Assembly (NCBI GenBank): GCA_944393575.1
Contig: CALYAP010000029.1
Span: forward strand, 1,987 to 65,986
Reading direction: 5' to 3'
Length of the DNA: 64,000 nucleotides
From: an uncultured Clostridia bacterium
GTDB taxonomy: Bacteria; Bacillota; Dehalobacteriia; UBA4068
Shown: in pieces, positions 3,321 to 26,496 of the stretch
Layout: each line of letters starts with the position of its first letter
Position numbering within the stretch: position 1 is the stretch's first letter
Made by a program: the position numbers and the translations under genes
Notes under the pieces: generated by a model
What the model saw: only the letters and a program-made list of their open reading frames with translations
Told to the model about the DNA's origin: nothing
The model's database searches: none

Positions 3321-4856
3321 CTATTTATCATCATGGCGCAGTTGATATTTACGCGCTACTGTGACCTTCTCCTCATAGCAGGCAAAGGACTGCTCGATCT
3401 GTTCCTTAGGCAGCGGCTTGGTCAGCAATGAGACTACGGGGACGATTATCAGGCTCACCAGCATGGTGATGGCGCCGGCATTGATTGCAGAATCGATAAA
3501 ACCGATGAACATATTGGCCACGGTGATACCTACGCCAGTAGCAAAGCTGGCCCAGACTGCCGCACGTGTGGTGCGCTTCCAATAGAGGCCATAGAGGAAA
3601 GGCGCCAGGAAAGCACCGGAAAGTGCGCCCCAGCTGATGCCCATCAGCTGAGCGATGAAAGTCGGCGGATCGATAGCCAAAATCACCGAGATCAGCAGGA
3701 AGACCGCTACCAATACCCGCAGCCAGATCATCTGTTTCTTCTCAGAAAGATCCTTGACCACTGTGCCTTTGATGAAGTCCAGCGTCAAGGTGCTGGCGCT
3801 GGTCAGTACTAACGAAGCCAGGGTGGACATCGAGGCAGAAAGCACCAGCATGATCACTACGCCGATCACGACATCGGGCAGAGTAGAAAGCATCGTCGGA
3901 ATGATGCTATCATAGACGATATTACCGGCTGCATCATAGATAGCAGGAGAATCATAGAGACGGGAGAAACCACCAAGGAAGTAAGAACCGCCGGCCACGA
4001 TCAGGGCGAAGAAGGTGGAGATGATGGTACCGGTATAAACAGCCTTCTCGCTCTTGATGGCATAAAATTTATGTACCATCTGCGGCAGTCCCCAGGTACC
4101 CAGCGAAGTCAGCAGCACTACACCCAGCAGGTTGAGCGGATCCGGCCCGAAAAAGCTGGTATACGCTCCCGGCTGCCCGGCAGTCACTGCCTCCACGCTC
4201 TCGATCTGCGCCAGCTGGCCGATAGCATCGATAAAACCGCCATTATTGGCGAGCACTGCAGCTATCACCAGCACGATACCGAAGAGCATCACGATGCCCT
4301 GGATCAGGTCATTGACCGCTGTGGCCATATAGCCGCCCAGCACCACATAGATGCAGGTCAGCACCGCCATACCGATCACGCAATAAATATACGGGATACC
4401 AAAAGCCATCTCAAAGAGGCGGGAAAGCCCATTATAGACCGAAGCGGTATACGGCACCAGAAAGACGAAAACAATAGCTGAGGCCACGACCTTCAGCGCC
4501 TGGGAATTATAGCGGCTGCCAAAGAATTCTGGCATGGTACGCGAGCCCAGATGATTACTCATCACCCGAGTGCGGCGTCCTAGGATCACCCAGGCCAAGA
4601 GGCTGCCGATCAGGGCGTTGCCTAGGCCGATCCAAGTAGAAGCCAGTCCGTATTTGAAGCCGAACTGCCCGGCATAGCCCACAAAAATAACCGCGGAAAA
4701 ATAGGTGGTTCCGTAAGCAAAAGCCGTCATCCACGGCCCGATACTCCGCCCGCCCAGCACAAAGCTGTTGACGGAATCAGCCTTCTTGCGGCTGACGATA
4801 CCCACTATTATCAACACGGTGAAAAAAACTACTAGTAAAGCGATTTTGATAAACAT
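3321..4856 (-). CDS. Sodium:solute symporter (SSS family)
   Basis: 511 aa, ~13 TM segments; F-x-LGGRSIGPW, GLPQMVHKFY, LSASMSTLAS, GLYWKRTT motifs. Confidence 0.92.
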   Translation of the reverse strand: MFIKIALLVVFFTVLIIVGIVSRKKADSVNSFVLGGRSIGPWMTAFAYGTTYFSAVIFVGYAGQFGFKYGLASTWIGLGNALIGSLLAWVILGRRTRVMSNHLGSRTMPEFFGSRYNSQALKVVASAIVFVFLVPYTASVYNGLSRLFEMAFGIPYIYCVIGMAVLTCIYVVLGGYMATAVNDLIQGIVMLFGIVLVIAAVLANNGGFIDAIGQLAQIESVEAVTAGQPGAYTSFFGPDPLNLLGVVLLTSLGTWGLPQMVHKFYAIKSEKAVYTGTIISTFFALIVAGGSYFLGGFSRLYDSPAIYDAAGNIVYDSIIPTMLSTLPDVVIGVVIMLVLSASMSTLASLVLTSASTLTLDFIKGTVVKDLSEKKQMIWLRVLVAVFLLISVILAIDPPTFIAQLMGISWGALSGAFLAPFLYGLYWKRTTRAAVWASFATGVGITVANMFIGFIDSAINAGAITMLVSLIIVPVVSLLTKPLPKEQIEQSFACYEEKVTVARKYQLRHDDK

Positions 4857-5064
4857 TTTCCTATACCTTCCATTCTACCATTTTACCTGCAGGCAAACAC
4901 AAGTTTGCTGCTAATTACCTGATGAATTTTATCAGATAGAAGGGTTTCTGTCAATAAAAGCTAATATATTTTAGTAGTGTTGTAAGTTTAGCCAATTTTT
5001 AGACAATTTTACCGGATCAAGATTTAGACCAAAAAAAATGATCCAAGATAGGGGAGGCAAAGTA

Positions 5065-5406
5065 ATGGCAAAAACACTCTCTTTTAAAACGCGACTCACC
5101 ATGCGTGCAGACGGGCGGAACGATCCCCATCATGGCTTTGGCAAGGGAATCGAAATGCTTCTCTTGGGCGTGGACAAATATGGCTCGCTGAACAGAGCTG
5201 CCAAAGAAATGGGTATGGCCTACTCCAAGGCCTGGAATGTCCTACGCCTCAATGAAAGCGAATTCGGCATCAAATTTATCAACCGCAATGGTGCCCATGG
5301 CTCTGAGCTAACGCCGGAGGGACGCGCTTTTCTGGAGCACTATCAGGAAATGGAGTTAGCAGCAGAGCGCGCCGCCCAGGAAGTTTTCGATAAGTATTTC
5401 CGCTAA
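5065..5406 (+). CDS. ModE-like winged-HTH regulator (DNA-binding domain only)
   Basis: FGKGIEMLL...GSLNRAAKEMGMAYSKAW...GSELTPEG; RBS GGAGG upstream of ATG 5065. Confidence 0.82.
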   Translation: MAKTLSFKTRLTMRADGRNDPHHGFGKGIEMLLLGVDKYGSLNRAAKEMGMAYSKAWNVLRLNESEFGIKFINRNGAHGSELTPEGRAFLEHYQEMELAAERAAQEVFDKYFR

Positions 5407-5597
5407 AGCAAGAATTCGCCAGCCAGGCTAACAAACTAGCAGCATCAGCCCCGTGAAAAACGGCTTGCCGTTACCCCTAATTTTAGTCTACTCTTAGTTA
5501 TCCTCTACAAAGAATAATTCAATCATCAACCAAGAATCATTAAGGAGCAACGCTTTTTAATCAAGAGACAAGAAGCATAACCAAACAAGCAATAATC

Positions 5598-5636
5598 GCA
5601 AAAACCGCCTTCCTCATCAGAAGAAGGCGGTTTTGC
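5598..5636. terminator. Bidirectional terminator between the ModE-like gene and rubrerythrin
   Basis: AAAACCGCCTTC...GAAGGCGGTTTT inverted repeat. Confidence 0.75.
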
Positions 5637-6375: not shown

Positions 6376-6625
6376 CTCGTTAACCTGATTTTAACCATGA
6401 AAAGCGGCTTACCAGCTAAAAAGATAACGGCATAACAATTTACATCGGTGCAGCACGGATCATCACAAAAGAGATCGACTATTTTTACTTAAAGTCGGAT
6501 TAAGACGGATTCGCTCAGAAAATGTTATTTTATTATACAATGAAATATATTGATAAAAAAAGATTTATGCTTTGACAACAACGTATTCTTGCCGGAAAAT
6601 AGCGAAAACTTCGATAAAATCCCCC

Positions 6626-6654
6626 TTGCAATTATCGAACAAATGTTCTATAAT
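6626..6654 (+). promoter_or_regulatory. Sigma-A promoter containing a LexA (Cheo) SOS box
   Basis: TTGCAA (6626)-17-TATAAT (6649); spacer holds CGAAC-AAAT-GTTC (6636-6648), matching the Gram-positive GAAC-N4-GTTC consensus. Confidence 0.8.
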
Positions 6655-6660
6655 AAAAAC

Positions 6661-6804
6661 ATGTTATATATCTGCCAATGCTGTGGCGCCCACTTTAGCA
6701 GGCCAGGCTATTATTATGAATATCAGGGGGAATGCTTCGGCAACCCTGCTTATGAAACCATCGAGTGCTGTCCTTTTTGCGGCGGCTCTTACGAAGGAGG
6801 GTAA
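6661..6804 (+). CDS. Small zinc-ribbon protein (47 aa), phage-like, probably leaderless
   Basis: MLYICQCCGAHF...ECCPFCGGS with CxxC...CPxC pairs; ATG 6 nt after TATAAT with no RBS; its 3' end holds the GGAGG RBS of the next gene. Confidence 0.65.
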   Translation: MLYICQCCGAHFSRPGYYYEYQGECFGNPAYETIECCPFCGGSYEGG

Positions 6805-6807
6805 GTT

Positions 6808-7263
6808 ATGACCAATATCTCTTGGCGCAGAGATGCCAAAAACATACTATATAATTATCCAGAAAACCTACGTTATCTCAAATCTTTAGAACAAGATCTT
6901 ATCTTTGCCCAATCACCACACCGTGAGGTCAGGCGGCGCGGCGGAATATCCGACCCCACGGCAGTCAAGGGAATGATGTTGGATAAAGGGGAAATCAAAG
7001 CCTTGAAAGAGCAATTAGCAGCAGTAGGGCGGTTGCTGGAACGGCTAGACAGCGCCCGGCGTGATGCCAAATATAAGCGTCTACTGCTGGAAATGGTCTA
7101 TTTTCGCCGCAGCCACAGTCTCTATGGCGCTGCCGCCTATCTGGGAATACCAGAGCGTACCGCTCACCGCTGGAATGCCAAAATACTGCATGCTCTAGCA
7201 GAGGAGCTGGGATATTTTGACGAGGATGAACAGTCTTATCTACCGCACCATACCCGTCTCTAG
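6808..7263 (+). CDS. RinA/ArpU-like phage transcriptional activator
   Basis: LYNYP...GGISDPT...LLEMVYF...GAAAYLGIPERTAHRW...LAEELG, C-terminal sigma4-like HTH typical of the RinA family. Confidence 0.72.
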   Translation: MTNISWRRDAKNILYNYPENLRYLKSLEQDLIFAQSPHREVRRRGGISDPTAVKGMMLDKGEIKALKEQLAAVGRLLERLDSARRDAKYKRLLLEMVYFRRSHSLYGAAAYLGIPERTAHRWNAKILHALAEELGYFDEDEQSYLPHHTRL

Positions 7264-7423
7264 ATAAGCTCCCAACACCGTTAGCACTGATTAAAATCTC
7301 ATCAAGGTAATACAGCCTACATGTTCTGCGGGCTGTGGTGTACAGTAGTCTGCTAAAGAGATTACCGTCCTAAGTAAAATCGAAAAGCAATGTTCCCTTT
7401 TAATCAAATTCCAGAAAAGGGTC

Positions 7424-8038
7424 TTAAAAATCAATAAAAACATCCTGCTCAAACTGCTTAGCTAAGCAGTCATAGAGCTGGGAAAGATACTCGTCTCCGC
7501 CGCTATAGCCCAAGCGGGACAGCAGATTGCAACAGCTCTCATAGCCGTGAACAAAGGAGCAAAGATATTCCCAACGAGCCAGGAGCAAGCAATTATCAAC
7601 ATAATCGGTGACGATCGGCAAGTAGATGGAAGTGACTGCATCCATCAGCCGAAGATAGGCATCATGCACTTCTTCAAAACGGTAAAGTTGAACCCGCTGC
7701 TCATCAATGGTTGGCGGATTCTCCATACCCAGCCAATCACTCTCTGTCAACTCTGTTGCTGCCTTAACGGGCTGCTGGAGATAGTTGCGCATCGCTATCG
7801 CCATTCCCTGAACCCAGCAGCGGTGAACAGCAATGGAAAGGACGTTTTCTACCGTATAGCGGAAGTCTTCAAACAGCTCGTGTTTTTCGCTGCCAACACA
7901 AAATTGCATCATATCGTCCAGCTCCAGCCGCAGCTCATCACGCCGTTTGAACAGCGGCCAGTTATTGCGGAGATAAAAAAAGACCTCTTCCTCACTATTA
8001 TCAAGCCAACTTTGCAAATCAGGTGTTAATTTATCCAT
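7424..8038 (-). CDS. Hypothetical helical protein, possibly two DUF6809-like repeats
   Basis: 204 aa with RBS GGAGG; two similar segments ending CWVQGMAIA and SFVHGYESC; divergent from an XRE gene. Confidence 0.5.
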   Translation of the reverse strand: MDKLTPDLQSWLDNSEEEVFFYLRNNWPLFKRRDELRLELDDMMQFCVGSEKHELFEDFRYTVENVLSIAVHRCWVQGMAIAMRNYLQQPVKAATELTESDWLGMENPPTIDEQRVQLYRFEEVHDAYLRLMDAVTSIYLPIVTDYVDNCLLLARWEYLCSFVHGYESCCNLLSRLGYSGGDEYLSQLYDCLAKQFEQDVFIDF

Positions 8039-8167
8039 ATCCCTTGCACCTCCAAAAGCAGCTATTTTAGCAGCAAAAACCTATCGGGACAGACAAAAAA
8101 CCACATGTGATGTTGTGTATAACCGCTGGTTCTTTAGATATACTCCTATAATAGGAGAGATTTAAGC

Positions 8168-8392
8168 ATGGGCCAGCATCAAAAGGAATATGAGTTAATA
8201 GGCGCAAATATTTTATACTACCGTAAGCAAGCTGGCTTAACACAAGCACAGCTGGCTGAAAAGGTTTCGCTCAGCACCAATCATCTGCAGCGAATAGAAA
8301 CTGCGGTCTCGGTGCCTTCATTACCCACGCTCTTGGATATTGCCAAAGCATTGGGGATCACTGTGGACAGACTTTTTATTAGAAATCACTAA
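8168..8392 (+). CDS. XRE-family HTH transcriptional regulator
   Basis: IGANILYYRKQAGLTQAQLAEKVSLS..HLQRIE...PSLPTLLDIAKALG. Confidence 0.9.
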   Translation: MGQHQKEYELIGANILYYRKQAGLTQAQLAEKVSLSTNHLQRIETAVSVPSLPTLLDIAKALGITVDRLFIRNH

Positions 8393-8444
8393 GCAAAAGC
8401 ATGCTGCAGACCAAAAGCTACTATAAATATCTTAATCAACAGCT

Positions 8445-8475
8445 ACGGTATCGTCAATAGCGATACCGTTTTTTT
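8445..8475 (+). terminator. Intrinsic terminator
   Basis: ACGGTATCG-TCAATAG-CGATACCGT followed by a T-tract. Confidence 0.8.
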
Positions 8476-8503
8476 AACAAAAATAACTGCCACCCCAACT
8501 TTC

Positions 8504-8553
8504 TATATGGCTAAATAATGGCCATATATTATGGCTATTATATCGGCCATAAT
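8504..8553. promoter_or_regulatory. Tandem palindromic operators upstream of the HTH gene
   Basis: TATATGGC-N9-GCCATATA and ATTATGGC-N10-GCCATAAT back to back. Confidence 0.6.
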
Positions 8554-8584
8554 AAAAAAAGTAAAGGGGATGAGTTGTTAGATC

Positions 8585-8794
8585 ATGATTAGATACGACC
8601 CATTATGGACCACTATGGCAGCGCAGCGGGTAACAACTTATACTCTCCGGGTCAAGCATGGGATGAGCCACGCTACAGTACAACGGTTACAAAAGAACTT
8701 GCCTGTATCTACCCACACGCTTAACCGGCTCTGCTGCATTCTTAATTGCCGGCTAGAGGATATTGCCGAATATGTGCCTGACGAACAGAAGTGA
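8585..8794 (+). CDS. Cro/C1-type HTH protein (HTH_26-like)
   Basis: MIRYDPLW...TTYTLR...MSHATVQRL...VSTHTLNRLC..LNC.LEDIAEY. Confidence 0.88.
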   Translation: MIRYDPLWTTMAAQRVTTYTLRVKHGMSHATVQRLQKNLPVSTHTLNRLCCILNCRLEDIAEYVPDEQK

Positions 8795-9007
8795 GTCAGG
8801 ATAAATTCACCGCAAAAAGGAGCCACAGAGATGGCTCTGAACAAAATTTGTGGTGACAGAATATTGAGCTCATTGCTAAAAAATCATGCCTCATCAGCGC
8901 CAAATAGCTATCTGTAATGCATGAAAAGAAAACAGGCGAAAAGGCATTTTATGTCAAGACGGATACCCCTTCCTGACAGAAAAAACCAGATAAAAAGGGG
9001 TCTTATC

Positions 9008-9057
9008 CAACAATATTGTAGCATATTTAAACATGGCATGCAACAAAATAGTAGCAT
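9008..9057. promoter_or_regulatory. Repeated 17-bp operator-like motif upstream of the XRE gene
   Basis: CAACAATATTGTAGCAT (9008-9024) and CAACAAAATAGTAGCAT (9041-9057), each pseudo-palindromic. Confidence 0.55.
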
Positions 9058-9084
9058 TGCTTTAAAAAAGGAGCTGATGCTACT

Positions 9085-9312
9085 ATGTTTTTTCAGCGGT
9101 TGGAAGATCTAAGGATCGACGCCGATAAAACACAAGCCGACATCGCCCAAGTGCTTTCCTGCAACAGAGAAGTGTACCGCCGCTATGAAAAAGGCAAATA
9201 CGAGCTTCCTGTCTGGGCATTAATCAAATTAGCTAAATATTATCACACCAGCACCGACTATATTTTGGGTTTGACCGATAATCCCAAGCCCTACCGGGAA
9301 GCACATAAATAA
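9085..9312 (+). CDS. XRE-family HTH transcriptional regulator
   Basis: FQRLEDLRIDADKTQADIA..L...Y.RYEKG...LIKLAKYY.TSTDYILGLTD. Confidence 0.9.
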   Translation: MFFQRLEDLRIDADKTQADIAQVLSCNREVYRRYEKGKYELPVWALIKLAKYYHTSTDYILGLTDNPKPYREAHK

Positions 9313-9412
9313 CACCGAGTACGATAAACAAGGTAAATGCTCTTCCAACCGTCAATCAGACTTGTCTTCCCCGCGGCAAGACCAAGACTAGCGGTTAACA
9401 ATCAACAACACA

Positions 9413-9439
9413 AGAGGCAGCCTAAATGCTGCCTCTTTG
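9413..9439 (+). terminator. Intrinsic terminator
   Basis: AGAGGCAGC-CTAAAT-GCTGCCTCT then TTG. Confidence 0.6.
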
Positions 9440-9835
9440 ATGTCTGATCGTTTTCCGACAAAAAGCGACAGTCGCCTCTGGGATCTGGAAAAACAAGCTG
9501 ATATTTGTCAGCTGGCCGGAGCTGCCACAGCCCCAAAACAGGTAGCGCTGAGAAAGATAATAATCCGCATTAGCAATCATCTTGCCCCCTGTTTTCTCTC
9601 TGCAGGCCAAACCGACATAAGCCGACAGTACCCTATTCCTCTAGGGTCAAAACGACATCGCCCGACACTGTCTGAGCATTTCCCCTTTTCTCCAGCACTA
9701 ATCCTGCATTCTCTGACACTGTCCGATGATTTCGGAGGATATTCGTTCGCATTCAGCGTTATCCTCTATTATCCGAGCTGCTCCATGGCTAGTCGAGATC
9801 AGCAGCTGTGGCAATATACTTATGCTGTCCCAACA

Positions 9836-9875
9836 AAAAACTCCTGTCATCAGCTACAAGCCCATGACAGGAGTT
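9836..9875 (-). terminator. Terminator of the VUT transporter gene
   Basis: AACTCCTGTCAT...ATGACAGGAGTT with a flanking A-tract on +. Confidence 0.7.
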
Positions 9876-9949
9876 CTCCAAAGTTAAATTACTGTGAAAA
9901 TCCACATACTGTGGAAAAGTTTTATACCCAAACCCGTTTAGCGATAAAG

Positions 9950-10564
9950 CTAGTCATTATCCTCTTTGACCAGGTAAACGCCACCAAAGCTCAGCAGTGA
10001 GACCACATACTTGATAATCAGGTTGGAGAGGAACATCCCTACCAGCACCGAAAAATCATACAAGCCAGTATAAGCGATCAGCAGGAAAACAGCGGTATCG
10101 ATCGGCACCGAGATAGTATTGGAAAGGATAACACGTAGCCATTGCTTGCGGGTACCGTATTTACGCCGCACTGCTGAATAGACCACGGTATCGATCAACT
10201 CGGCGATAGTCATCGCCACCACCGATGCTGCTACCAAGCGCAGCCCCGGGGCCAGCACCAAAGAATATTCAGCCTGGGCACCCACCGTAGGATCTGCCGG
10301 CAGCGCGCCAACCATCCAGACAAAAGCAAAGAGCAGGATATTGATTCCTGCTGCCAGCCAGATGGTGAAACGGGTGATCTGCGCACCAGTCTTCTTATGC
10401 AGCAGGTCGCGCATGGTAAAAGTAAACGGATAAAGCAACGCGCCGCCGTCTACCGAGAGGCCGGCGATATTGAGAATACGCAGCGAACCCAGATTGGAAA
10501 AGATGATCAGGCTGATGTAGCCGGCTGCTGCGGCAATGATTATTTTAAGTCTTTTATTGTCCAT
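9950..10564 (-). CDS. VUT-family (YhhQ-like) queuosine precursor transporter
   Basis: GGALLYPFTFTMRDLL, WLRVILSNTISVPIDTAVF; start at ATG 10564, 6 nt after an extended -10 (TGCTATAAT). Confidence 0.85.
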   Translation of the reverse strand: MDNKRLKIIIAAAAGYISLIIFSNLGSLRILNIAGLSVDGGALLYPFTFTMRDLLHKKTGAQITRFTIWLAAGINILLFAFVWMVGALPADPTVGAQAEYSLVLAPGLRLVAASVVAMTIAELIDTVVYSAVRRKYGTRKQWLRVILSNTISVPIDTAVFLLIAYTGLYDFSVLVGMFLSNLIIKYVVSLLSFGGVYLVKEDND

Positions 10565-10678
10565 GGCGCTATTATAGCACAAGCCTATCCTGATGAAAAG
10601 AATAAAATTTTGTCGCCGGCAAGGAAGCAGGAAAAGCTTTCTTAGGCAGCGAACAGATAGGCGAAAGGGGGTCTGAGC

Positions 10679-11152
10679 ATGCAGGAAAGAATGGAAAAAT
10701 ATCAGCTCAGCAAGGAAGAAATCACTACCGTACTGACAGAGAGCAGCAGCGGAGTACTAGCTACCATCAATAGCGATGGTTCTCCCTATGCCACACCGAT
10801 TCAATTCGTCTATCAGGGTGGACGGCTCTATTTTCATGGCAGGAGTGCCGGGCAGAAGCTGGATAATCTGCGTGCCGACGCCAGAGTCAGCTTCACTGCC
10901 TATCAGGAGCAAGGTCTACAGCGCAGTCCGCAGGGTAAGCCATGCGGCACCAACACCTGCTACCGCAGTGTCATCATCAGCGGAACCGCCCGTGAGCTGA
11001 GCGATCCCGCTGCTAAGACCGCAGCATTGGCAGCTATCGTGGCTAAATACACGCCTGAGCTGGCAGGAGTACCCCTACCTGAAACATCAGTGGCCAAAAC
11101 AGCAGTGATCGAGCTGACCCCAGATGCTATCACCGGCAAATATTACGGCTAG
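10679..11152 (+). CDS. Pyridoxamine 5'-phosphate oxidase-like flavin-binding protein (NimA-like)
   Basis: GVLAT..DGSPYATP..F...GRLYFHG...GQKLDNL; YRSVIISG; ITGK end. Confidence 0.85.
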   Translation: MQERMEKYQLSKEEITTVLTESSSGVLATINSDGSPYATPIQFVYQGGRLYFHGRSAGQKLDNLRADARVSFTAYQEQGLQRSPQGKPCGTNTCYRSVIISGTARELSDPAAKTAALAAIVAKYTPELAGVPLPETSVAKTAVIELTPDAITGKYYG

Positions 11153-11660: not shown

Positions 11661-12539
11661 TCAGCGTTTGCGCTCCGGCAGCAGCTTCTCGATCAGGTTT
11701 TCCAGATCGTCCGCGCTGTGGTAGGAGATCACCAGGCGCCCTTTTTGCAGATCTCCCTGCAAACGTGCTGGCAGCCCCAGGGTGGAGGTAAAACGCTTTT
11801 CCAAATCGTGCAGATGCGCTGGGTGGGCAAGAGGCTTCCGCTGATTTGGACGCTTTTCTTCGCTCCAGCTCTTGGCCAAAGCCTCGGCCTGGCGGACCGA
11901 TAGATTGCGTCGGCAAATCTCCTCAGCCAGACGCGCCTGCAAACGGGAATCGCTCAATGACAGCAATGCCCGGGCATGGCCGGCGCTGAGGCGCCCATCC
12001 TCGACCATCTTCTGATATTGCGGCGCCAGCTGCAACAGGCGAAGGGTATTGGCCACATAGGGACGGCTCTTGCCGAGACGTTCCGCCAACTGCTCCTGAG
12101 TATAACCAAAATTATCGATCAGACGGCGGTAAGCCGCGGCCTCCTCCATGGCGGTCAAATTCTCGCGCTGGATATTCTCGATCAGCGAAACCTCAGCCTG
12201 TTCAGACTCATTATAAGTAGAGATAATGCAGGGCAGCTCGGCTAAAGCTGCCATCTGGGCGGCGCGGAAACGCCGCTCGCCAACGATGATGCGGTAACTG
12301 CCATCACCAAGGCTGGTCACCAGCAATGGCTGCATCACGCCAAATTGGCGGATCGACTCGGCCAGCTCAGACAGCTTATCCTCATCAAAAATCTGGCGCG
12401 GTTGATCAGGGTCGGCCTGCAATTTGCCGATCGGGAGCATCACTATTTTTTGCTGAGGGCTGGTTTCCTCAAAAATCGGCTTATCCGGCATCAGTGCCGA
12501 AAGACCACGTCCGAGAGCCTGTTTTTTCGCCTTTACCAT
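11661..12539 (-). CDS. parB: Chromosome partitioning protein ParB/Spo0J
   Basis: ALGRGLSAL N-terminus, QPR..F, IIVGERRFRAA, IENIQRENL, GKSRPYVANTLRLL, LSAGHARALL. Confidence 0.97.
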   Translation of the reverse strand: MVKAKKQALGRGLSALMPDKPIFEETSPQQKIVMLPIGKLQADPDQPRQIFDEDKLSELAESIRQFGVMQPLLVTSLGDGSYRIIVGERRFRAAQMAALAELPCIISTYNESEQAEVSLIENIQRENLTAMEEAAAYRRLIDNFGYTQEQLAERLGKSRPYVANTLRLLQLAPQYQKMVEDGRLSAGHARALLSLSDSRLQARLAEEICRRNLSVRQAEALAKSWSEEKRPNQRKPLAHPAHLHDLEKRFTSTLGLPARLQGDLQKGRLVISYHSADDLENLIEKLLPERKR

Positions 12540-12592
12540 AGAGACCTCCTTAAATTCAGCAGCCGGGCTGCTGGTATTTGCTCGCTATCCCG

Positions 12593-13357
12593 CTACTCCT
12601 GGCGGGTAAGAAATTCATCAGCCAGAGCCTGGTATTCCACTGCGCCGCGCGATTTCGGATCATAGATAATGCCGGGTAATCCGTGGCTGGGAGCCTCGGA
12701 CAAGCGCACCGAGCGGGAAATCTGCGTATCATAGACTTTGCGCCCAAAATAATTACGCGCCTCATCAGCAACCTGCGAAGAAAGATTGGTGCGGGCGTCA
12801 AACATGGTCAGCAGCACCCCTTCGATCTCCAGATCCGGATTGAGGTTTTTGCGGATCATCTCATAAGTATTGAGCAGCTGAGTTACCCCCTCCAGCGCAT
12901 AGTACTCGCATTGTAGGGGCAGCAACGCCCGGTCTGCAGCGGAGAGGGCATTGATAGTCAGCAGGCCCAAGGAAGGCGGACAGTCGATGAAAATATAATC
13001 ATAGCGCTCCTTTTGTGGGCGAAGTATCTGCCGCAAACGGTTTTCCCGCGAGATCGCCGAAACCAGTTCGACTTCTGCGCCAGCCAGCTGAATGGTAGCA
13101 GGGATCAGGTCTAGCTGCTGATAATCAGTATGGAGCAGCACTGCTTCCAGCGGAGCATCATTGATCAGCAGATCATAAACACAATGCTCGATCTGCCGGC
13201 GGTCAATACCCAATCCACTGGTGGCATTGCCCTGTGGGTCCAGATCCACCAGCAGGGTATGATGACCGCGCTGCGCTATGGCGGCAGAAAGATTGATGGC
13301 AGTGGTGGTCTTGGCCACACCGCCTTTTTGGTTGACGATAGCGATGATTTTTCCCAT
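12593..13357 (-). CDS. parA: Chromosome partitioning ATPase ParA/Soj
   Basis: NQKGGVAKTTT, DLDPQGNAT, IDCPPSLG, LQCEYYALEG. Confidence 0.97.
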   Translation of the reverse strand: MGKIIAIVNQKGGVAKTTTAINLSAAIAQRGHHTLLVDLDPQGNATSGLGIDRRQIEHCVYDLLINDAPLEAVLLHTDYQQLDLIPATIQLAGAEVELVSAISRENRLRQILRPQKERYDYIFIDCPPSLGLLTINALSAADRALLPLQCEYYALEGVTQLLNTYEMIRKNLNPDLEIEGVLLTMFDARTNLSSQVADEARNYFGRKVYDTQISRSVRLSEAPSHGLPGIIYDPKSRGAVEYQALADEFLTRQE

Positions 13358-13780
13358 GAAGCTCCTCCTGATCGTTTCGCTTTTAGTTGTGGCGCACTGA
13401 GCAGCCTGCGCTAAACTCTTGGCCCTATCAGCCTTCCCCTATATCATACTCCACTATCGGCATTGATGCAAGTAGGCCTACTTTCATCTATCAGAACCGC
13501 GGCGATCTTTTTATTCTCAACAGCAGGGCGGTCTCTGACATCATGCAGGCAGATAGCCTTCTGTGCAATTTCCACCGACAAAAGGAGGGGCCGTCAGCCA
13601 TTAGCTGACACATCATGCCGCGGCGGCAGAATGCCTGCCAGCTATGGAGACATTGGCAGCAGTCCCCTGCTAAGATAAAAAAGCGCGGGGTACTCCCGCA
13701 CCGACGACGAGCTTCACCCGCCTGAGCAGATTTTTCCTCAAAAGAGCAAGACAAGCAAACGGAAAAAAATAAACTACCGT

Positions 13781-13796
13781 TGTTTCACGTGAAACG
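13781..13796. promoter_or_regulatory. parS site
   Basis: TGTTTCACGTGAAACG (1 mismatch to consensus). Confidence 0.88.
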
Positions 13797-13849
13797 TTTC
13801 CCAACAGCAAACAGGAATGTTAGCAAAAGCACCCCATCTCGACCATCTC

Positions 13850-13865
13850 TGTTTCACGTGAAACT
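13850..13865. promoter_or_regulatory. parS site
   Basis: TGTTTCACGTGAAACT (1 mismatch to consensus). Confidence 0.88.
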
Positions 13866-13995
13866 ATTATCTCGATGCAGAACTGCCAAAAGATGCTCTG
13901 AGCAGAGACCATAAATATCACGGGCATACATCTAACCCGTCGCTACATGCCTCAGCCGTCGCATAACGGCAAGAGCCCTGTCAAACATCCAGCAG

Positions 13996-14739
13996 CTACA
14001 GGGGACGCTTGGTCGGCATACCGGGACGGCGGGGGTATTTCTCAGGGGTAGGCGCGTTCTTGCGCACCAAGACCACACTGCGCCCTTCACCGGAAAGCGG
14101 CAGCTGATAGTAAACGACCTGCTCCATGCTGCCGCCCAATAGCTCTACAGCATGCGCGCTGGCAGTCAGCTCCTCCTGCGGATCCGGCCCTTTTAGAGCT
14201 ATGAACAGCCCGCCTTCTCGCAACAAAGGCAGGGCGTACTCCGCCAGTACCGCCAAGTCAGCCACTGCGCGGGCTGTCACCAAATGGAAGCTGCCGCGCA
14301 AAGCAGGGTCGCGTCCAGCCTCTTCTGCCCGTAGCGGCAAAGCCTGCAGCCGTTCCAAACCCATCTCTGCTGCGCTGCGTTCCAGGAAGGCCGTTTTTTT
14401 CTGCGAGGATTCGATCAGCGTGAAAGAAAGCTCTGGATATGCCGCAGCCCAAACCAGCCCGGGGAAACCGCCGCCGCTGCCGATATCAGCCACCTGCCCT
14501 GACTGAGGCAGCCAAGAGCGTACCGCTGCCGCTGCCTGCAGACAATCCAGATAATGCTTCTGCGCTGCGGTCTCAGGATCAGTGATGGCGGTAAGATTGA
14601 ATTGGCGGTTAGCTTCGGTTAAAAGCTGCCAATGCAGCGCCAGCTTTTCCGCCAGCCCTGGCTTTAATGGCAACCCTGCCTCCTGCGCCAGTTTTTCGAT
14701 CAGCTGCTGCAATGTTGCTTCCTCCCTTTCTTGCATCAT
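13996..14739 (-). CDS. rsmG: 16S rRNA m7G527 methyltransferase
   Basis: NLTAI, DIGSGGGFPG, TARAVA, KYPRRPGMP. Confidence 0.96.
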   Translation of the reverse strand: MMQEREEATLQQLIEKLAQEAGLPLKPGLAEKLALHWQLLTEANRQFNLTAITDPETAAQKHYLDCLQAAAAVRSWLPQSGQVADIGSGGGFPGLVWAAAYPELSFTLIESSQKKTAFLERSAAEMGLERLQALPLRAEEAGRDPALRGSFHLVTARAVADLAVLAEYALPLLREGGLFIALKGPDPQEELTASAHAVELLGGSMEQVVYYQLPLSGEGRSVVLVRKNAPTPEKYPRRPGMPTKRPL

Positions 14740-15654
14740 TTTTCTATCCTGATGGCTTCTGCTGTTTCCTGCTCTTTTATCTTCTTTTGTCTTTGATAGC
14801 AGATACTTTCTCTTTACCCATTTTTATGCCAATAATCAGGATTTGGCGTTAATTTTTTCATTTTATGGCAATAAAGCACCTTTTCAGCTAATTTACGCTA
14901 GTAATCACTAAAAAACAAGTTTATCCGTAGTTTTTCTGCTGTTTTCTCTAATAAACATGATTATCCGCTATTTTAAAATAATAGGTAACAAAAAGCGTGA
15001 TTTTAGCAAATTCTCTGCTACTAAACAACAATGACCGAGATTCTCAGTGCCATTACGGCATTATCCGTCTGCCTATATTCTTTTTCGACCCTCTCCGCGA
15101 TTCAACGATAATAACCGTTCTTTTAGCCTGTTTTCCGTTGCTGACCGACAGCAACCGCTTTTTATCGCCCCGTTTCATTTCCAACCGCGAAGCTGCGAAA
15201 AATTCAGCCAAAAATCGCCCCCAAACGCTATTTTGCATAGCTAAGCGGCTTTTTCCGTCAATAACCGTCTTCTGCTGTCAATCAGTGTCATTTTCCGTGA
15301 AGATACGAGCCATTCCCGCAACAAACCGTCAATATTCCGCTTTAACTGAGCTGCTCCGCGCCTTTCCGCGCAGTCACGAGCTTAAACAAGCATCGCCGAC
15401 ACTGTCCGCTACTAGGAGACAGCTTCCGTCAACAACCGCACTGCCTTGCAAAGAAAAAGCAGCATAGCATACCGCCCGCCAACCGGCAAGAGCCGAGTTT
15501 TTACGCCGGTCTCCGGGGCATTCCGCTCTTATGCGACATTATCTGTGCGGTTCCGTCATCAAGCTATCAAGCAGCTTGTACGAGCTGTTTCGACTGTCAT
15601 CGGCAATATGCCGACCTTTTCCGGCATTGAACGTATCCATTCCGCGCTCTTGCG

Positions 15655-17532
15655 TCAATGTCCGCGGCTGCGCAGATAGACCAGCAGCACATTGATATCA
15701 GCCGGAGAGACGCCGCTGATCCGGGCAGCCTGTCCTACTGACTGCGGCTGCCGCTTATTGAGCTTCTGGGCTGATTCTACCGACAATCCGCGAATCTGCA
15801 AATAATCAGTCCCCTCCGGCAGGCGTTTGTTTTCCAGGTTGCGAAAACGCTCTACTTGTTCTTCTTGTTTTTTGATATATCCGGCATATTTGAGGCTGAT
15901 ATCCACCTGTTCGGCAGCCTGTGACTCTAGCGGCTCAGCCGGGGGAAAAGCCTGGCTGACCTGTGCATAATCTAGCTCCGGACGCTGCATCAGCGTGGCC
16001 AGATCGCTGCCGGGAATCGCCTCGATACCAGCGGCGGCAAATTGCTCCTGAGTGGGTTTATAGTTGCGCAAACGCTCTATTTCTGCTTCCACCGCCGCTT
16101 TTTTGGCCAAGAAGCGCTCTGCCCGCTGAGGCGAGATCAGTCCGTATTGCAGCCCTTTTTCTGTCAAACGCAGATCGGCATTATCCTGCCGCAGCAGCAG
16201 CCGGTATTCCGAGCGCGAGGTGAACAGGCGGTAAGGCTCGTCCACTCCCTTGGTTACCAGGTCATCAGCGAGCACACCGATATAAGCGTCAGCGCGCGAA
16301 AGGATAAAAGGCGGCAGGCCCTTCAAAGAAGCAGCAGCATTGATCGCAGCCAGCAGTCCCTGGCCGGCAGCCTCCTCATAACCGCTGGTACCATTGATCT
16401 GGCCAGCGCAATAAAGTCCGTGGATAGCCTTGGTCTCGAGAGTAATTTTGAGCTCCGTGGGGTCGATGCAGTCATATTCGATAGCATAGGCCGGACGGAT
16501 AATGCGGCAGTGCTCCAGGCCGGGAATAGTGTGATAAAAAGCAGCCTGCACCTCTTCCGGTAGTGAGGAGCTCATGCCCTGGACATAATACTCATTGCAC
16601 TGCTCTCCCTCTGGCTCCAGAAACAACTGATGGCTATCGCGCTCGGAAAAGCGCACCACCTTATCCTCAATGCTGGGACAGTAGCGCGGACCAATACCCT
16701 TGATCCGTCCGGAGTAGAGCGGCGCCCGGTGCAGATTAGCGCGGATGATCTCATGGGTCTGCTCATTGGTATGCGAAAGCCAGCAGGGGATCGAGGGGCG
16801 TTGATATTGTCCCGGCTCTGTGAGGAAGGAAAAAGCCAGCCCCTGATCGCCATCTTGGCGCACGGTTTTACTAAAATCAATCGTCCGGGCATCGAGTCGC
16901 GCCGGAGTGCCGGTCTTGAAACGGGCCATCGGCAAGCCCAGGTCACGCAGGTATTCTCCCAGCGCGCAGGAGGGGGGATAACCGGTAGGGCCGGAGCTTT
17001 TTTCATATTCGCCAATGATGATCTTGCCGTTAAGATAGGTTCCGGTACAGATGATCACCCGCGGCGCCAGGAAAACTGCTCCCGAAGAGGTAGCACAGCC
17101 AATGACGCGGTCTCCCTCCAGCAGCAGCGCAGAGGCTTCAGCCTGGCGGATATCCAATCCCGGAGTGGTCTCCATCCGCCGGCGCATCGTCCGCTGATAG
17201 AGCGATTTATCGATCTGCGCACGCAGCGCCCGCACTGCCGGCCCGCGAGAAATATTGAGCATTCTGATCTGGATCAGGCTCTGATCAGTGACCTCAGCCA
17301 TTGCCCCGCCCAGGGCGTCGATCTCCCGCACCACCACGCTTTTTGCCGGTCCGCCGATCGCCGGGTTGCAGGGAGCCATGGCGATCGATTCCGGGTTCAT
17401 GGTGATCAGCACAGTCGCCATACCCATCCGCGCGGCTGCTAAAGCCGCCTCACAGCCGGCATGACCGCCACCAATCACCGCTACCTGGTATTCTCCAGCA
17501 ATATATTGATTACTTCCCAGCTTGATATCCAT
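15655..17532 (-). CDS. mnmG: tRNA uridine-34 carboxymethylaminomethyl modification enzyme
   Basis: [44 protein letters not shown]. Confidence 0.98.
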
Positions 17533-17562
17533 TTGCTTCTCCGTTTACCCCTAAATGACTGC

Positions 17563-18948
17563 CTATTTGCCGAGGCAGAAGCGGCTGAAAATCTCCTTTA
17601 GCACCTCATCAGAAACGCTATTGCCGGTGATCTTACCCAGAGCAGAGCAAGCGTTCTCGATATCGATACCAGCCATATCACAAGGGAGATCCTCGTCCAA
17701 AGCAGCAATGGCTGCTTCCAGATGCTGCTGCGCCTCGCGCAGCGCCTCGATATGGCGCAGATTATTGACCAGCGGCGAAACAGCCACCGCATCCAGCTCA
17801 TCACCGCACTGCTGACGGATCGCATCACGCAGCTCATCCATGCCCTGGCCAGTCTTAGCGCTGATAACAATAGAGGGCACGCCGCCGGCTGCTGCTAAAT
17901 GGGCATTAATCCGGTCCTGAGAGGCGATGTCCGCTTTATTAAATACCGCCAGCCGCCGCCGTCCCTTGGTCTCGGTAATCAGTTTGCGCTCGCTGCCGGA
18001 TAAGGGCAGGCTGGCGTCAATGACCAGCAAAAGCAGCTGAGCCTGTTCCAAGGCGATATAAGAACGCTTGATCCCGATCTTTTCCACCTCATCGGCCTCT
18101 TCTTCCGGACGCAAGCCGGCAGTATCGCAGAGGATGATGGGAATACCGCCGATATTGAGCGGCTCCTCCAGCAGGTCGCGGGTAGTGCCGGGGACACTGG
18201 TGACAATCGCCCGGTCACGCTGCAGCAGCGCATTCATCAGCTTGGATTTACCAGCATTGACAGAGCCCAGCAGGGCGGTACGCACGCCTTCGCGGCAGGA
18301 GAGACCTAGCTCTGCTCCATGTAACAGCTCATCGATGCGCAGCCGCTGCTGATCCAGCAGCTGGATCAGCTCACCATTGCTAGGCGCATCGGCATCTTCG
18401 GGGAAATCAACCGCTACAGTGATCAGCGAAAGAACATGGAGCAACCCCTCTTCGATACTCAACACCTGCTTAGAGAGCACCCCAGCCAACTGTCGTGCCG
18501 CCAGGGAAGCAGCACGGGGAGTTTTGGCCTCGATCAGGTCGCAGACAGCCTCCGCCTGAGCCAGGTCGATCCGCCCGTTCAAAAAAGCGCGGAGGGTAAA
18601 TTCTCCCGGTGTGGCCAGCCGCGCTCCCTCGCGCAGAGTCAGATCAAGCACCGCGTGCATCACCTGCGGTCCGCCATGACATTGCAGTTCTACCACATCT
18701 TCGGTAGTAAAAGAGTGAGGCGCCGGCATGAAGACAGCCATAGCCTGATCCAGAGCAACCTGATGTTCATGGTCGTAGACCTCGCCATAGGCAAGCCTTC
18801 TGGGCTCCATGGCTTCGGCCCCGCCCCGGGGAATAAAAACCCGCTCCAGGATCTGGTGAGCCGCTGGCCCACTAATCCTCACTATGCCAATGCCGCCCCG
18901 TCCCATCGGAGTAGCTATCGCCGCAATAGTATCCTTGCTGGCCTCCAT
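17563..18948 (-). CDS. mnmE: tRNA modification GTPase
   Basis: DTIAAIAT, GEFTLRAFLNG, GSVNAGKS, GTTRD, DTAG, NKAD, FCLGK C-terminus. Confidence 0.98.
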   Translation of the reverse strand: MEASKDTIAAIATPMGRGGIGIVRISGPAAHQILERVFIPRGGAEAMEPRRLAYGEVYDHEHQVALDQAMAVFMPAPHSFTTEDVVELQCHGGPQVMHAVLDLTLREGARLATPGEFTLRAFLNGRIDLAQAEAVCDLIEAKTPRAASLAARQLAGVLSKQVLSIEEGLLHVLSLITVAVDFPEDADAPSNGELIQLLDQQRLRIDELLHGAELGLSCREGVRTALLGSVNAGKSKLMNALLQRDRAIVTSVPGTTRDLLEEPLNIGGIPIILCDTAGLRPEEEADEVEKIGIKRSYIALEQAQLLLLVIDASLPLSGSERKLITETKGRRRLAVFNKADIASQDRINAHLAAAGGVPSIVISAKTGQGMDELRDAIRQQCGDELDAVAVSPLVNNLRHIEALREAQQHLEAAIAALDEDLPCDMAGIDIENACSALGKITGNSVSDEVLKEIFSRFCLGK

Positions 18949-19260
18949 CTTGATCCCTCCTTAGGTTTTCTTCATATGTAAAAATAAATATCAGTGCTGA
19001 AGCTGCGTATTCCAGCATCCCTTGCCGCCAGCTGCTACAGGTAAACCTCTACTGGTTATTCTTCAGCAACGGCAATACTCCCCCATAACCGATGTCAGTC
19101 TTTTCCTCCTGATAGGGATTAGACCCATACCCGACAGAGCTATCGACAGACAGCTGCATTCACCATATCGGGAGGCATTAGGCAGACTATTGCTGCCTTT
19201 GCCTGGTATACCGTCATACTTTGGTGATTTTGTCGGCAAGCATCTGCCATTTAGCGACAA

Positions 19261-19288
19261 AGAAAGGGCGGCCCCGGTGAGCCGCCCC
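19261..19288 (-). terminator. Possible terminator after jag
   Basis: GGGCGGC-CCCGGTGA-GCCGCCC with a flanking A-rich tract. Confidence 0.5.
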
Positions 19289-19421
19289 ATCGGCGTCTAG
19301 CATTACTCTTATATTAGCTAAGCGAAACGCTTGTAGCATTCAAAGACCAAACCGGCTCAACTGCAATGAGCAAATAGTCAAGCCGCAGTTAGCCAACCGG
19401 CCGCTAATTAGCAACCAAAGC

Positions 19422-20381
19422 TTACTGGTCGTCGTCAGTATCGTGAGTGATGATCACCTGTGGCAAAGGCTCGCCCCTGCGCTCAGCTTTATGCTGTCCG
19501 CCGCCGCGTTTATGCCGCTTCGGAGTGATGACCACCCGGCGGTATGGTTCCTCGCCATGGCTGGCAGTCTCAACCCGCTTATCGTTTTGCAGAGCGATGT
19601 GGACGATACGCCGCTCATGCGGATTCATCGGCTCCAGCTCTACCCGGCGGCCAGAACGGACCGCCTTATCAGCCATTTTTTTGGCCAGGGCATGCAGGGT
19701 CTGCTCGCGGCTCTCGCGGTAGCCTTCAACATCAAGCACCAGGCGAACCCGCTCGCCACGCTTGCGGTTAACAGCCAGATTGGCCAAATACTGGATGGCG
19801 TTGAGGGTCTCGCCCCGTCTGCCGATCAGCAGTCCCAGCTTTTCGCCGCTCAAAATGATCCAGAGAATACCGTCCTTGATCTCCGTGCGGTATTCCGGGC
19901 TAACGCCCAGCTCGGTGAAGATTGGCTCGACAAAAGAACGAGCCGTCTCAAAGATCTCTATCTCCATCTCGCCGCTGGTGATCTCGATGGCGTGGCTTTC
20001 GCGCTTACTTTCGTTTTTGGCAGCAGCTTTTTCCCCTCCCTTGCGGGATTGGCCTTTTGCCGGTTGCTGCTTAGCAGTCGCCGGTGGCTCCACCACCTCG
20101 ATAGCTTTGATCTCCAACTCTGCTGCTGGTTTTTTCTTCTTCTGTTCTACTTTACTTTTCTTTTTGCCAAAGGTGGTAGCAGGCTTAGTCTCTTCCGGCT
20201 CCGGCATATCTTCAACGGTGATCCGCACCTTAGCATCTTTGTGGCCAAAGCCAAACAAGCCTTTACCGCCGAGTTCCAAAATTTCTATCTCAACGTTTTC
20301 AATGGTAGTGCCAGCCAACATACAGGCATTATCGATAGCCTCGTCAACTGTTTTGCCGCTGGCCTCATAAGTCTTTGCCAT
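19422..20381 (-). CDS. jag: Jag/EloR/KhpB RNA-binding protein
   Basis: Jag_N (GKTVDEAI...KGLFG), KH (LLIGRRGETL), R3H (PMNPHERRIVH); RBS GGAGG upstream of ATG 20381. Confidence 0.95.
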   Translation of the reverse strand: MAKTYEASGKTVDEAIDNACMLAGTTIENVEIEILELGGKGLFGFGHKDAKVRITVEDMPEPEETKPATTFGKKKSKVEQKKKKPAAELEIKAIEVVEPPATAKQQPAKGQSRKGGEKAAAKNESKRESHAIEITSGEMEIEIFETARSFVEPIFTELGVSPEYRTEIKDGILWIILSGEKLGLLIGRRGETLNAIQYLANLAVNRKRGERVRLVLDVEGYRESREQTLHALAKKMADKAVRSGRRVELEPMNPHERRIVHIALQNDKRVETASHGEEPYRRVVITPKRHKRGGGQHKAERRGEPLPQVIITHDTDDDQ

Positions 20382-20536
20382 CTTATTATTACCTCCCAAG
20401 ACAGCTCCACCGCCGCTGCGCTAGACAGCCATGCAGCAGCTGAGGGGAAGCCGTCTGCTCTTCTTCTCCGGGGTCGGCGCCCAAGCGCCTGGTATCATCA
20501 TCCAAAGAGAATTTATTTTTTGTTATTCCCCTTAGA

Positions 20537-21724: not shown

Positions 21725-21781
21725 GTTTTTAATACCTCCGGTTTTTCCTTAAACCAAACTATTGCAACACAGCGCAGACCT

Positions 21782-22658: not shown

Positions 22659-22669
22659 GTCTTTACGCC

Positions 22670-24530: not shown

Positions 24531-24578
24531 GCTACATTATATATATTCTACATTATATACATGATAAATATGCTGCAT

Positions 24579-26495: not shown

Positions 26496-26496
26496 C

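Follow-up and report, generated by a model that had tools for sequence, protein, structure and literature searches.

A 64,000-nucleotide stretch of contig CALYAP010000029.1, from an uncultured Clostridia bacterium (hereafter the window), contains two neighbouring plus-strand genes, at 6661–6804 and 6808–7263, that code for a 47-residue protein of the zinc-ribbon type and for a 151-residue late-gene activator of the RinA family, and that share a promoter with a putative LexA box. We read this pair as a master switch, repressed through the SOS system, of domesticated particles of phage origin whose genes lie elsewhere in the chromosome, and put the probability of this reading at roughly 0.6. The anatomy of the pair and its promoter, their conservation, the co-occurrence of rinA with a cluster of virion genes, and the synteny of that cluster and the purifying selection upon it can all be read from the sequences. 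The genome of the window (G000; 1.67 Mb in 78 contigs, 96.9% complete), in which the contig with the window is C29, was compared with its congeners (G001 to G004; genus g1) and within a family set of 31 genomes, a RinA homologue being called at E ≤ 1e-10. All genomes of the family are metagenome-assembled genomes (MAGs) of 20–290 contigs each, and the metagenome runs behind them are labelled mostly as chicken gut.

The promoter and its LexA box

The promoter of the pair (6626–6654, plus strand) is of the sigma-70 type, with a -35 hexamer, TTGCAA, at 6626–6631 and a -10 hexamer, TATAAT, at 6649–6654, separated by a spacer of 17 nt (6632–6648); a promoter scan scores it at 10 matches out of 12. 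Between the two hexamers lies CGAACAAATGTTCT (6636–6649), a putative LexA box of the Cheo type, the final T of which doubles as the first T of the -10 element, and the palindromic GAAC-N4-GTTC overlaps the core promoter elements as is expected of a LexA operator. The Cheo-type operator consensus of the Firmicutes is CGAAC-N4-GTTCG, and the sole exact match to CGAACNNNNGTTCK in the 64-kb window is the box at 6636–6649. A promoter of this build, with the box in its spacer, had been claimed in a first-pass annotation of the window, and the coordinates, now read directly, bear it out.

The box is of the same type as those before lexA, recA, uvrB and a Y-family polymerase gene of G000, and looks like a real SOS operator. 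The lexA gene was identified by TIGR00498 and has three boxes, AGAACAAATGTTTG, in front of it; recA, uvrB and the polymerase gene were named from their translations alone. Intergenic DNA of G000 holds 11 relaxed LexA boxes, a count that leaves out the box of the window (which falls inside a spurious 84-residue open reading frame, ORF), and seven of them precede lexA (three), uvrB, recA, the polymerase gene and an element on contig C41; the promoters of the polymerase gene and of the C41 element likewise hold the box inside the spacer. At 1012–2115 of contig C10 (locus L020), lexA is divergent from a 103-residue LysM-domain-like gene, with the three boxes between them, a layout that recalls the lexA/yneA arrangement of Bacillus.

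The ATG of the first gene, at 6661, follows the -10 element by 6 nt, with no Shine-Dalgarno sequence between, which suggests a leaderless mRNA for the 47-codon ORF in this genus. The layout is found only within the genus, in G000, G003 and G004; elsewhere in the family the ORF is preceded by a leader of about 50 nt that includes a Shine-Dalgarno sequence, so that leaderless expression would be a local trait of the genus rather than of the system. Moreover, an upstream promoter-like site (TTGACA-17-GAAAAT, 6572–6600, plus strand), given by the promoter scan only and with no evidence of conservation, offers an alternative start and could be the source of a leadered transcript. The earlier statement that the gene is leaderless thus stands as regards the 6-nt spacing and the missing Shine-Dalgarno sequence, but it holds for this genus only and has a rival in the upstream site. 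The second gene has a Shine-Dalgarno sequence of its own, GGAGG (6796–6800, plus strand), which overlaps the end of the first ORF.

The RinA-family activator and its probable zinc-ribbon partner

The product of the second gene (6808–7263) passes the cut-off of the NCBIfam model TIGR01636, phage_rinA (36.2 bits against 31.9; E 5.7e-9), and upholds the earlier RinA/ArpU-like label; the alignment covers residues 10–136 of the protein and positions 9–134 of the 134 of the profile. It also matches the PHROG families phrog_36 (4.1e-12) and phrog_248 (1.5e-6), both of transcription regulators or activators, and with Pfam nothing rises above the cut-offs, the only signal being a sub-threshold helix-turn-helix (HTH). 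An AlphaFold model built with 15 homologues (mean confidence, pLDDT, 77) is all-helical, with a C-terminal HTH that may resemble region 4 of sigma factors, although the structural matches are weak: Foldseek gave no match at E ≤ 0.001, its weak rows being mostly the -35-binding region 4 of extracytoplasmic function (ECF) sigma factors, and VIA-align gave Z scores of 6.2 for sigmaE region 4 (root-mean-square deviation 2.4 over 69 residues) and 6.4 for AlgU, neither above those of unrelated helical chains. RinA's own C-terminal half has been likened to sigma region 4 (PMC3152322), a remark that the weak likeness of our model fits. RinA proteins bind a promoter upstream of terS, the gene for the small terminase subunit, and transcription of the late operon needs them (PMC3152322, PMC3753634). 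Such a position, phage-encoded and just upstream of terS, is not found in the window; in the family it is seen only in G008 and G042. Searches with the protein found no match in a collection of phages, one match of 30% identity in viral_contigs, the three congeners only in genome_contigs, and no match by sequence in the PDB. The ratio of nonsynonymous to synonymous substitution rates (dN/dS) of rinA, G000 against G002, is 0.105, with dS saturated.

The 47-residue protein (6661–6804) reads MLYICQCCG...CCPFCGGSYEGG, of the form CxxC...CPxCG. Its homologues have in common C5, C8, C37 and C40 and a GE.FG.P core, and the cysteines are invariant in 12 sequences from relatives. An AlphaFold2 model (pLDDT 92.7) has four strands with beta-hairpins throughout, and we read the protein as a zinc ribbon with two CxxC knuckles on beta-hairpins, for which metal binding is predicted. 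It has no match in Pfam or NCBIfam scans, no significant Foldseek match, and only a weak PHROG match (phrog_27517, E 0.028). An index of 5.8 billion words yielded no candidate either, probably because small ORFs are rarely called. A profile search collected 2009 proteins at E ≤ 1e-3, many of which are multi-repeat zinc-finger arrays; among the top-scoring 150, only some 55 are small proteins with a single stretch, and none is a fusion of about 200 residues. The dN/dS of the short zinc-ribbon gene is about 0.25, with dS saturated.

What ties the two proteins together is their arrangement among the 17 loci with a RinA homologue. The zinc-ribbon gene precedes rinA in 11 (as a longer form in four), follows it in two (genus g4), and is fused to it in frame in two others (G003 and G019); the genes are adjacent in 13 of the 17. 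That the genes have been fused twice independently, and adjoin each other in both orders, argues that the proteins work together, and we favour a zinc ribbon that serves as a co-activator bound to RinA. Ogr of phage P2, a small zinc-binding late activator mentioned in PMC3152322, offers an analogy only. In G019, the fused gene and its LexA box stand directly 5' of radA on the same strand (C2, L026, 9371–11476).

A virion-gene cluster at a separate locus

The first-pass annotation had proposed that a terminase, capsid and tail cluster lacking an activator of its own be sought elsewhere in the genome, and one extends from terL, the gene for the large terminase subunit, to an endolysin gene on contigs C27 and C39 of G000, unlinked from the pair and comprising about 12 genes in about 11 kb. 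On the minus strand of C27 these are terL (8862–10751; PHROG match), a portal gene (7058–8791; PF23899, SU10_portal, 4e-31), an 82-residue gene, an adaptor gene (by homology to G008), a 210-residue gene, the gene for an SU10-type major capsid protein (4471–5631; PF17236, SU10_MCP, 1e-49), and genes for a 581-residue tail or internal-virion protein, a 223-residue protein, a beta-helix tailspike, a 67-residue protein and a 55-residue holin-like protein. A CHAP endolysin homologue, recognised from PF05257 in G002 and G003, lies across the junction with C39, the two contigs overlapping by 127 nt (C27 begins with the last 127 bases of C39). No integrase, replication gene or regulator was found in the cluster, C27 has no GAAC-N4-GTTC, and four common Pfam families of terminases, portals and capsids detect nothing else in G000. 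With its counterparts in known phages, mostly podoviruses of 37–65 kb, the capsid protein shares no more than 34% identity.

The three congeners whose locus was retrieved, G002, G003 and G004, carry this cluster with its gene order unchanged, next to the housekeeping block that ends C39 in G000 (prfA, prmC and sua5, then a sigma-factor gene and a 231-residue gene). On the terL side, a gene for an S-layer homology (SLH) protein is found in G000, in G002 and, more weakly, in G004, and a contig break in G003. Protein identities in the cluster keep pace with those of the flanking housekeeping genes (57–92% in the cluster and 54–96% in the flanks for G002, 53–80% and 50–93% for G004), and dN/dS is 0.027–0.064 for the capsid gene, 0.05–0.09 for the portal gene, 0.09 for terL and 0.13 for the tailspike gene. 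As judged from these comparisons, the cluster is inherited and not recently acquired, and it is under purifying selection. Virion genes in a host genome that come without replication or integration functions and evolve with the host are part of what defines gene transfer agents (GTAs) and viriforms (PMC9662315), and the cluster conforms to that description. A GTA also packages random host DNA, in amounts too small to hold its own genes, at which the intact terL and the missing terS of this genus hint at most. Tailocins lack capsid, portal and terminase, all of which are found here (SU10_MCP, 1e-49; SU10_portal, 4e-31; terL by PHROG). A satellite of the capsid-forming phage-inducible chromosomal island (cf-PICI) type was considered and dropped, the cluster having tail and lysis genes and no integrase or primase.

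A late-type promoter before terL

Upstream of terL, an A/T-rich stretch is followed by (G)TGGCA(G/C)TTTTT, exactly 16 nt, and TATAAT or TAAAAT, with no recognisable -35 hexamer. This arrangement is present in G000, G001, G002, G004, G013 and G015. Genome-wide, TGGCASTTTTT-N16-TAWRAT occurs once in each of G001 to G004, upstream of terL, and twice in G015, and a reversed control pattern gave no match in the genomes searched. The single site of G003 is at a contig end, and the tandem repeats found there continue to the start of the terL contig. The second site of G015 stands before the gene for a CHAP endolysin homologue that lies apart from the rest, the main cluster of that genome being without an endolysin. 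The strict core motif occurs eight times in G000, of which two occurrences are promoter-like, the terL site (C27:10864) and an orphan on contig C30. In G024 it is rinA itself that has a variant, TGGCAGATTTT-N16-TATGAT, upstream of it, and G007 has AGGCAGATTTT at terL; this hints at autoregulation where the LexA box is absent. A sigma-54 promoter, which TGGCA might suggest, was dropped as an explanation, as the distance to the GC element varies.

The orphan site of G000, GTGGCAGTTTTT-N16-TAAAAT (C30:62793, plus strand; about position 2794 of L089), adjoins spoIIID and is followed by about 70 nt, an intrinsic-terminator-like hairpin and then unrelated genes. The region is similar only to that upstream of terL in G001, and an Rfam scan of it found nothing near gathering scores; it may specify a small RNA or a conditional terminator. 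A comparable short unit stands upstream of the separate endolysin gene of G015. GC-rich repeats of about 12–15 nt, similar to gagccgggaagg, fill the leader from promoter to terL in G003 and break its assembly (C16:1–140 and C2:1–560; L093 and L059).

The probable link between switch and cluster, and its regulation across the family

Evidence that the pair may govern such a cluster comes from genus g5. In G008 and G042 an S24-type repressor gene and, divergently, the zinc-ribbon, rinA, terS-like, terL and portal genes are all contiguous; in G008 the order after the pair is terS-like, terL, adaptor and portal. This linked layout looks like a prophage-type form of the system. The G008 terL, portal, adaptor and tail proteins have homologues on C27 of G000, and the only match of the G008 activator in that genome is the gene of the window. 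Among the 31 genomes, 17 have RinA and 16 a portal; 15 have both, two RinA only, one (G012) the portal only, and 13 neither. Pairwise identities of the two proteins are correlated, with a Spearman coefficient of 0.82 for 88 pairs and of 0.76 for those between genera, to which we attach no probability because related genomes are not independent. In six genera RinA is found in all genomes searched, and in g1 in four of the five, the exception being 73% complete; G001, 73% complete, carries a terL fragment. This near-universal presence within genera, together with a dN/dS of about 0.1 for rinA, excludes that the pair is a remnant found only sporadically and in decay. The proposal made in the first-pass annotation, of a domesticated late switch that is wired to LexA and has a distant, phage-derived target, thus gains support from the cluster itself, from joint presence or absence in 15 + 13 of the 31 genomes and from the adjacency in g5, and the remnant without purifying selection against which it had been set is not what the family displays. 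The conservation in relatives that the same annotation had asked about is likewise seen, the box in 11 of the 17 RinA loci and adjacency of the zinc-ribbon gene and rinA in 13.

The 11 boxed loci belong to four genera: g1 (four), g2 (three), g12 (one) and g16 (three). Nine of them keep an identical register, TTGCAA/TTGACT-N4-CGAAC-N4-GTTC-TATAAT, with the box abutting the -10 element, and the other two (G022 and G041) have it just downstream of the -10 element. Four loci, in g5 (three genomes) and g10 (one), have instead of the box a divergent gene for a repressor with an HTH and an S24 peptidase domain (confirmed by Pfam in G008 and G013, and otherwise judged by translation), and the two g4 loci have neither.

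A proposed mechanism

The working of the system, from binding by LexA and induction by DNA damage to the association of the zinc ribbon with RinA, the action of RinA at its promoter and the formation of particles, we infer as follows. In undamaged cells, LexA bound to the box in the spacer would block RNA polymerase. Upon DNA damage, RecA-stimulated cleavage of LexA would free the promoter, and a short transcript, probably leaderless in this genus, would give the zinc-ribbon protein and RinA, which probably act as a complex. RinA would then bind the TGGCA/T-run element that replaces the -35 hexamer, probably through its sigma-region-4-like C-terminus, and recruit RNA polymerase, so that the late-type promoter TGGCA(G/C)TTTTT-N16-TATAAT before terL on C27 would fire the set of about 12 genes: terminase, portal, adaptor, scaffold, SU10-type capsid, tail proteins, tailspike, holin and CHAP endolysin. 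The cell would build podovirus-like particles and then lyse. Since there are no replication or integration genes, and the loci are separate, the particles would have no self-propagating genome and would not spread as a phage.

Particles that package DNA are preferred because terminase, portal and capsid are intact under selection, and our bet is that they would package host DNA, in the manner of a GTA, rather than only kill. A fuller version of this idea, which we put forward tentatively, is that of a previously unrecognised multi-locus GTA lineage, derived from an SU10-like podovirus, in which the zinc-ribbon/RinA switch may have moved from S24 to LexA control. Its loci might then comprise the structural and lysis cluster, a separate endolysin in some species and the orphan late promoter, with packaging and release of chromosomal DNA by a fraction of the cells as a possible consequence of damage; this too should be taken as one possibility only.

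Alternative explanations

The system could be as described and its particles serve as PBSX-like weapons, or as a lysis device that releases cell contents. The beta-helix tailspike and the lysis cassette would suit such a role, as would the barnase-like ribonuclease and barstar in the lysis slot of G004 (see below), and SOS-induced, activator-driven pyocins are known from PrtR/PrtN (PMC8609362). It is the purifying selection on terminase, portal and capsid that makes us doubt it, selection that would be difficult to account for if the packaging of DNA were of no consequence, and tailocins proper are without head genes. It is unlikely, in our estimation, that the resident cluster is controlled otherwise and that the switch acts on foreign DNA, the SOS-induced activator firing the late genes of an invading or resident phage or satellite, in defence or in help. 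Two points would suit it: late activators of the super-family act specifically on the late promoters that are their own (PMC3753634), and the scarcity of close phage relatives (none in phages and one, at 30%, in viral_contigs) would fit a host-specialised copy of this kind. Against it, a promoter that looks cognate stands at the resident cluster and hardly anywhere besides; the linked layout of g5 marks this cluster as the ancestral target. Nor do the flanks, as annotated with Pfam and PHROG, reveal a context of defence genes, no PADLOC scan having been made.

A pair that is an orphaned prophage leftover, repressed by LexA and in control of nothing, its co-occurrence with the cluster being due to common descent only, would account for the lack of phage genes in the window, for the loss of the zinc-ribbon gene from G002 and G022, for flanking genes that differ between species, and for the second small remnant on C41 with its zinc-ribbon paralogue and LexA box. 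We regard it as distinctly unlikely, as RinA is intact in 17 of 31 genomes (all of six genera and four of five in g1), rinA has a dN/dS of 0.105 (dS saturated), promoter and box agree base for base across four genera, and the cluster, without another regulator, yet keeps an activator-type promoter. Highly improbable, finally, is an ordinary mobile temperate phage whose modules seem apart through fragmented or mis-assembled genomes. It is true that all genomes are MAGs of 20–290 contigs and that the g5 modules are contiguous and have an S24 repressor next to them, in the manner of a prophage; however, housekeeping genes flank the pair in G000, G002, G003, G004, G013 and G019, the G004 cluster is bounded by prfA-prmC-sua5 and the SLH-protein gene, a single insertion site is shared by four species at about 65–80% protein identity, no integrase or replication genes adjoin either module, and even in g5 the repressor is directly beside the late genes with no early region (as annotated by homology to C27).

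Several observations weigh against the SOS-controlled switch that we prefer. Fragmented gut MAGs underlie everything, and the word unlinked rests on flanks of 3–10 kb; the strongest case is G004, where pair and cluster lie on separate contigs, each surrounded by housekeeping genes. The window contig, C29, has the highest GC content of its bin (0.52, against about 0.45), for which reason mis-binning is conceivable, but the same two loci are present in three congeners. Co-occurrence is imperfect, with RinA and no detected portal in G022 (78% complete, with terL) and G041 (61% complete), and a portal and no RinA in G012. The zinc-ribbon gene is missing from two of the 17 loci, G002 and G022, and is therefore not indispensable. 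The one-mismatch LexA motif is at chance level in the window (four found, 4.24 expected from shuffles), so that the box draws its weight from position and conservation. The late promoter is degenerate or unclean in G019, G022 and G007, and that of G008, TGTCACTTTTT, has a 19-nt gap. terS was not found in genus g1, so that competence to package is a presumption. The endolysin slot of G004 (C20, L054, 6348–7523) holds a 226-residue protein with a barnase-type ribonuclease domain and a barstar, beside a 42-residue remnant like an endolysin C-terminus; in G000, G002 and G003 a CHAP endolysin follows the holin. Assembled contigs from four RNA runs gave one identical piece of 199 nt (6905–7103, inside rinA) from one metatranscriptome, in which start and induction are unreadable, and 6644–6904 is uncovered in the contigs of two clear runs; nothing follows from these, as contigs reveal neither start nor level. 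LexA binding, damage induction and the action of RinA at the late promoter are themselves predictions, and the evolutionary direction, with the LexA box replacing an S24 repressor, is conjectural.

Genomic surroundings and related elements

No prophage surrounds the pair, as had been said of it at the outset: the 57 ORFs of the window that were scanned gave no virion or integrase match in PHROG at E ≤ 1e-8. On both sides of the pair there are several kb of housekeeping genes in G000, G002, G003, G004, G013 and G019, and these flanking genes differ in G002, G003, G004, G013 and G019. Downstream of rinA, at 7424–9312 of the window, are a minus-strand ORF of 204 residues without a family and three small XRE/HTH genes (8168–8392, 8585–8794 and 9085–9312), which separate rinA from a Vut_1 transporter gene; because rinA is followed directly by Vut_1 in G002, the four genes are an insertion in G000 or were deleted in G002. 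The chromosomal origin region, at 11664–27642, has parB, parA, mnmG-like, mnmE-like and dnaA-like genes (the last at 23109–24527) and dnaN (26500–27642), the switch being about 16 kb from the dnaA-like gene. In G013 the switch is part of an island of about 4 kb between recO and rpoD-dnaG (C9, L027, 9582–13302), with rinA and a long zinc-ribbon gene on one strand and, on the other, five small ORFs of unknown function beside the gene for an S24 repressor; its terL and portal genes lie on other contigs.

The C41 element of G000 (L033, 5427–10650) is a small mobile-element-like island that encodes an XRE repressor and a large serine recombinase and also has a cro-like gene. Its LexA box, AGAACAAATGTTCG, lies in a TTGATT-17-TATAAT promoter at 7182 that drives a 70-residue ORF, and a second zinc-ribbon paralogue (9903–10061; 53 residues) is 54% identical to the protein of the window. 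No RinA and no virion genes were found in the island, and it was dropped as a target of the switch for want of the latter.

Significance and comparison with known systems

Domesticated phage particles (GTAs, PBSX and tailocins) are known from few lineages, and an inherited cluster of the podovirus type in gut Clostridia would widen this picture. Described GTAs are siphovirus-like, with long tails, and PBSX has a contractile tail. The circuit proposed here is legible from sequence, from LexA box to activator to a near-unique promoter, and would offer a testable regulon in uncultured organisms. Moreover, the comparative series, with its three states (an S24 repressor linked to the late genes, an S24 repressor unlinked from them, and an unlinked locus with a LexA box), may record the rewiring of a lysis-lysogeny switch into a host stress response. 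If DNA is moved by the particles, gene exchange in the group would be stimulated directly by SOS-inducing drugs in poultry guts. Among the papers listed by full-text searches, which did not reach most subscription journals, none describes a chromosomal, LexA-controlled activator of the RinA type that serves an unlinked particle cluster.

The closest known counterparts of the activator are the late activators of the RinA/Ltr super-family from Gram-positive siphophages such as phi11 and 80alpha (PMC3152322, PMC3753634). The likeness consists in the TIGR01636 match, in a small helical protein with a C-terminal half that may be sigma-region-4-like, in a g5 gene directly upstream of terS, and in a single conserved promoter before a packaging gene. 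The differences are that here there is no prophage, and no early or replication unit under a phage CI; that a host LexA box is used and the presumed target is unlinked; that the activator is paired with, and sometimes fused to, a zinc-ribbon protein, which is not described for RinA (the word zinc does not occur in PMC3753634); and that phi11 and 80alpha are siphophages, whereas the virion genes here are of the SU10 podovirus type.

The logic of the R and F pyocins of Pseudomonas aeruginosa, in which damage leads through loss of the repressor PrtR to the activator PrtN, a promoter box, particles, holin and lysin, and death (PMC8609362), would be the same, and g5 and g10 resemble PrtR in their use of an autocleaving S24 repressor. 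The proteins are unrelated, however, most lineages here use the host LexA, and a head and terminase are encoded rather than a tailocin. RcGTA of Rhodobacter capsulatus (PMC9638019, PMC6363796, PMC5026251) is likewise a vertically inherited cluster without a regulator, served by an unlinked sigma-like activator, GafA; its genes are spread over several loci, as is the endolysin in G015, and LexA is involved. GafA is nevertheless unrelated to RinA and driven by CtrA and quorum sensing, with LexA acting indirectly, and RcGTA is siphovirus-like and alphaproteobacterial; for the particles proposed here, packaging of host DNA would be a prediction.

A repressor and a positive factor just before terminase genes, as seen in g5, are also a feature of PBSX. 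This SOS-inducible defective prophage of Bacillus subtilis has an Xre repressor next to the sigma-like Xpf, just before its terminase genes. It differs in being contiguous and myovirus-like and in having its own repressor and an activator of the sigma-70 family. Direct control by LexA is known from GIL01, CTXphi and the tum gene of phage 186. It has been described for operon I of the Staphylococcus aureus pathogenicity islands (SaPIs; cited in PMC3152322), which resembles our case in having a host LexA box on a phage-derived promoter, and SOS-dependent prophages have been predicted more widely (PMC12527982). In SaPI, GIL01, CTXphi and 186, however, the boxes lie inside the mobile element itself, whereas here the box would control an isolated chromosomal activator operon near oriC.

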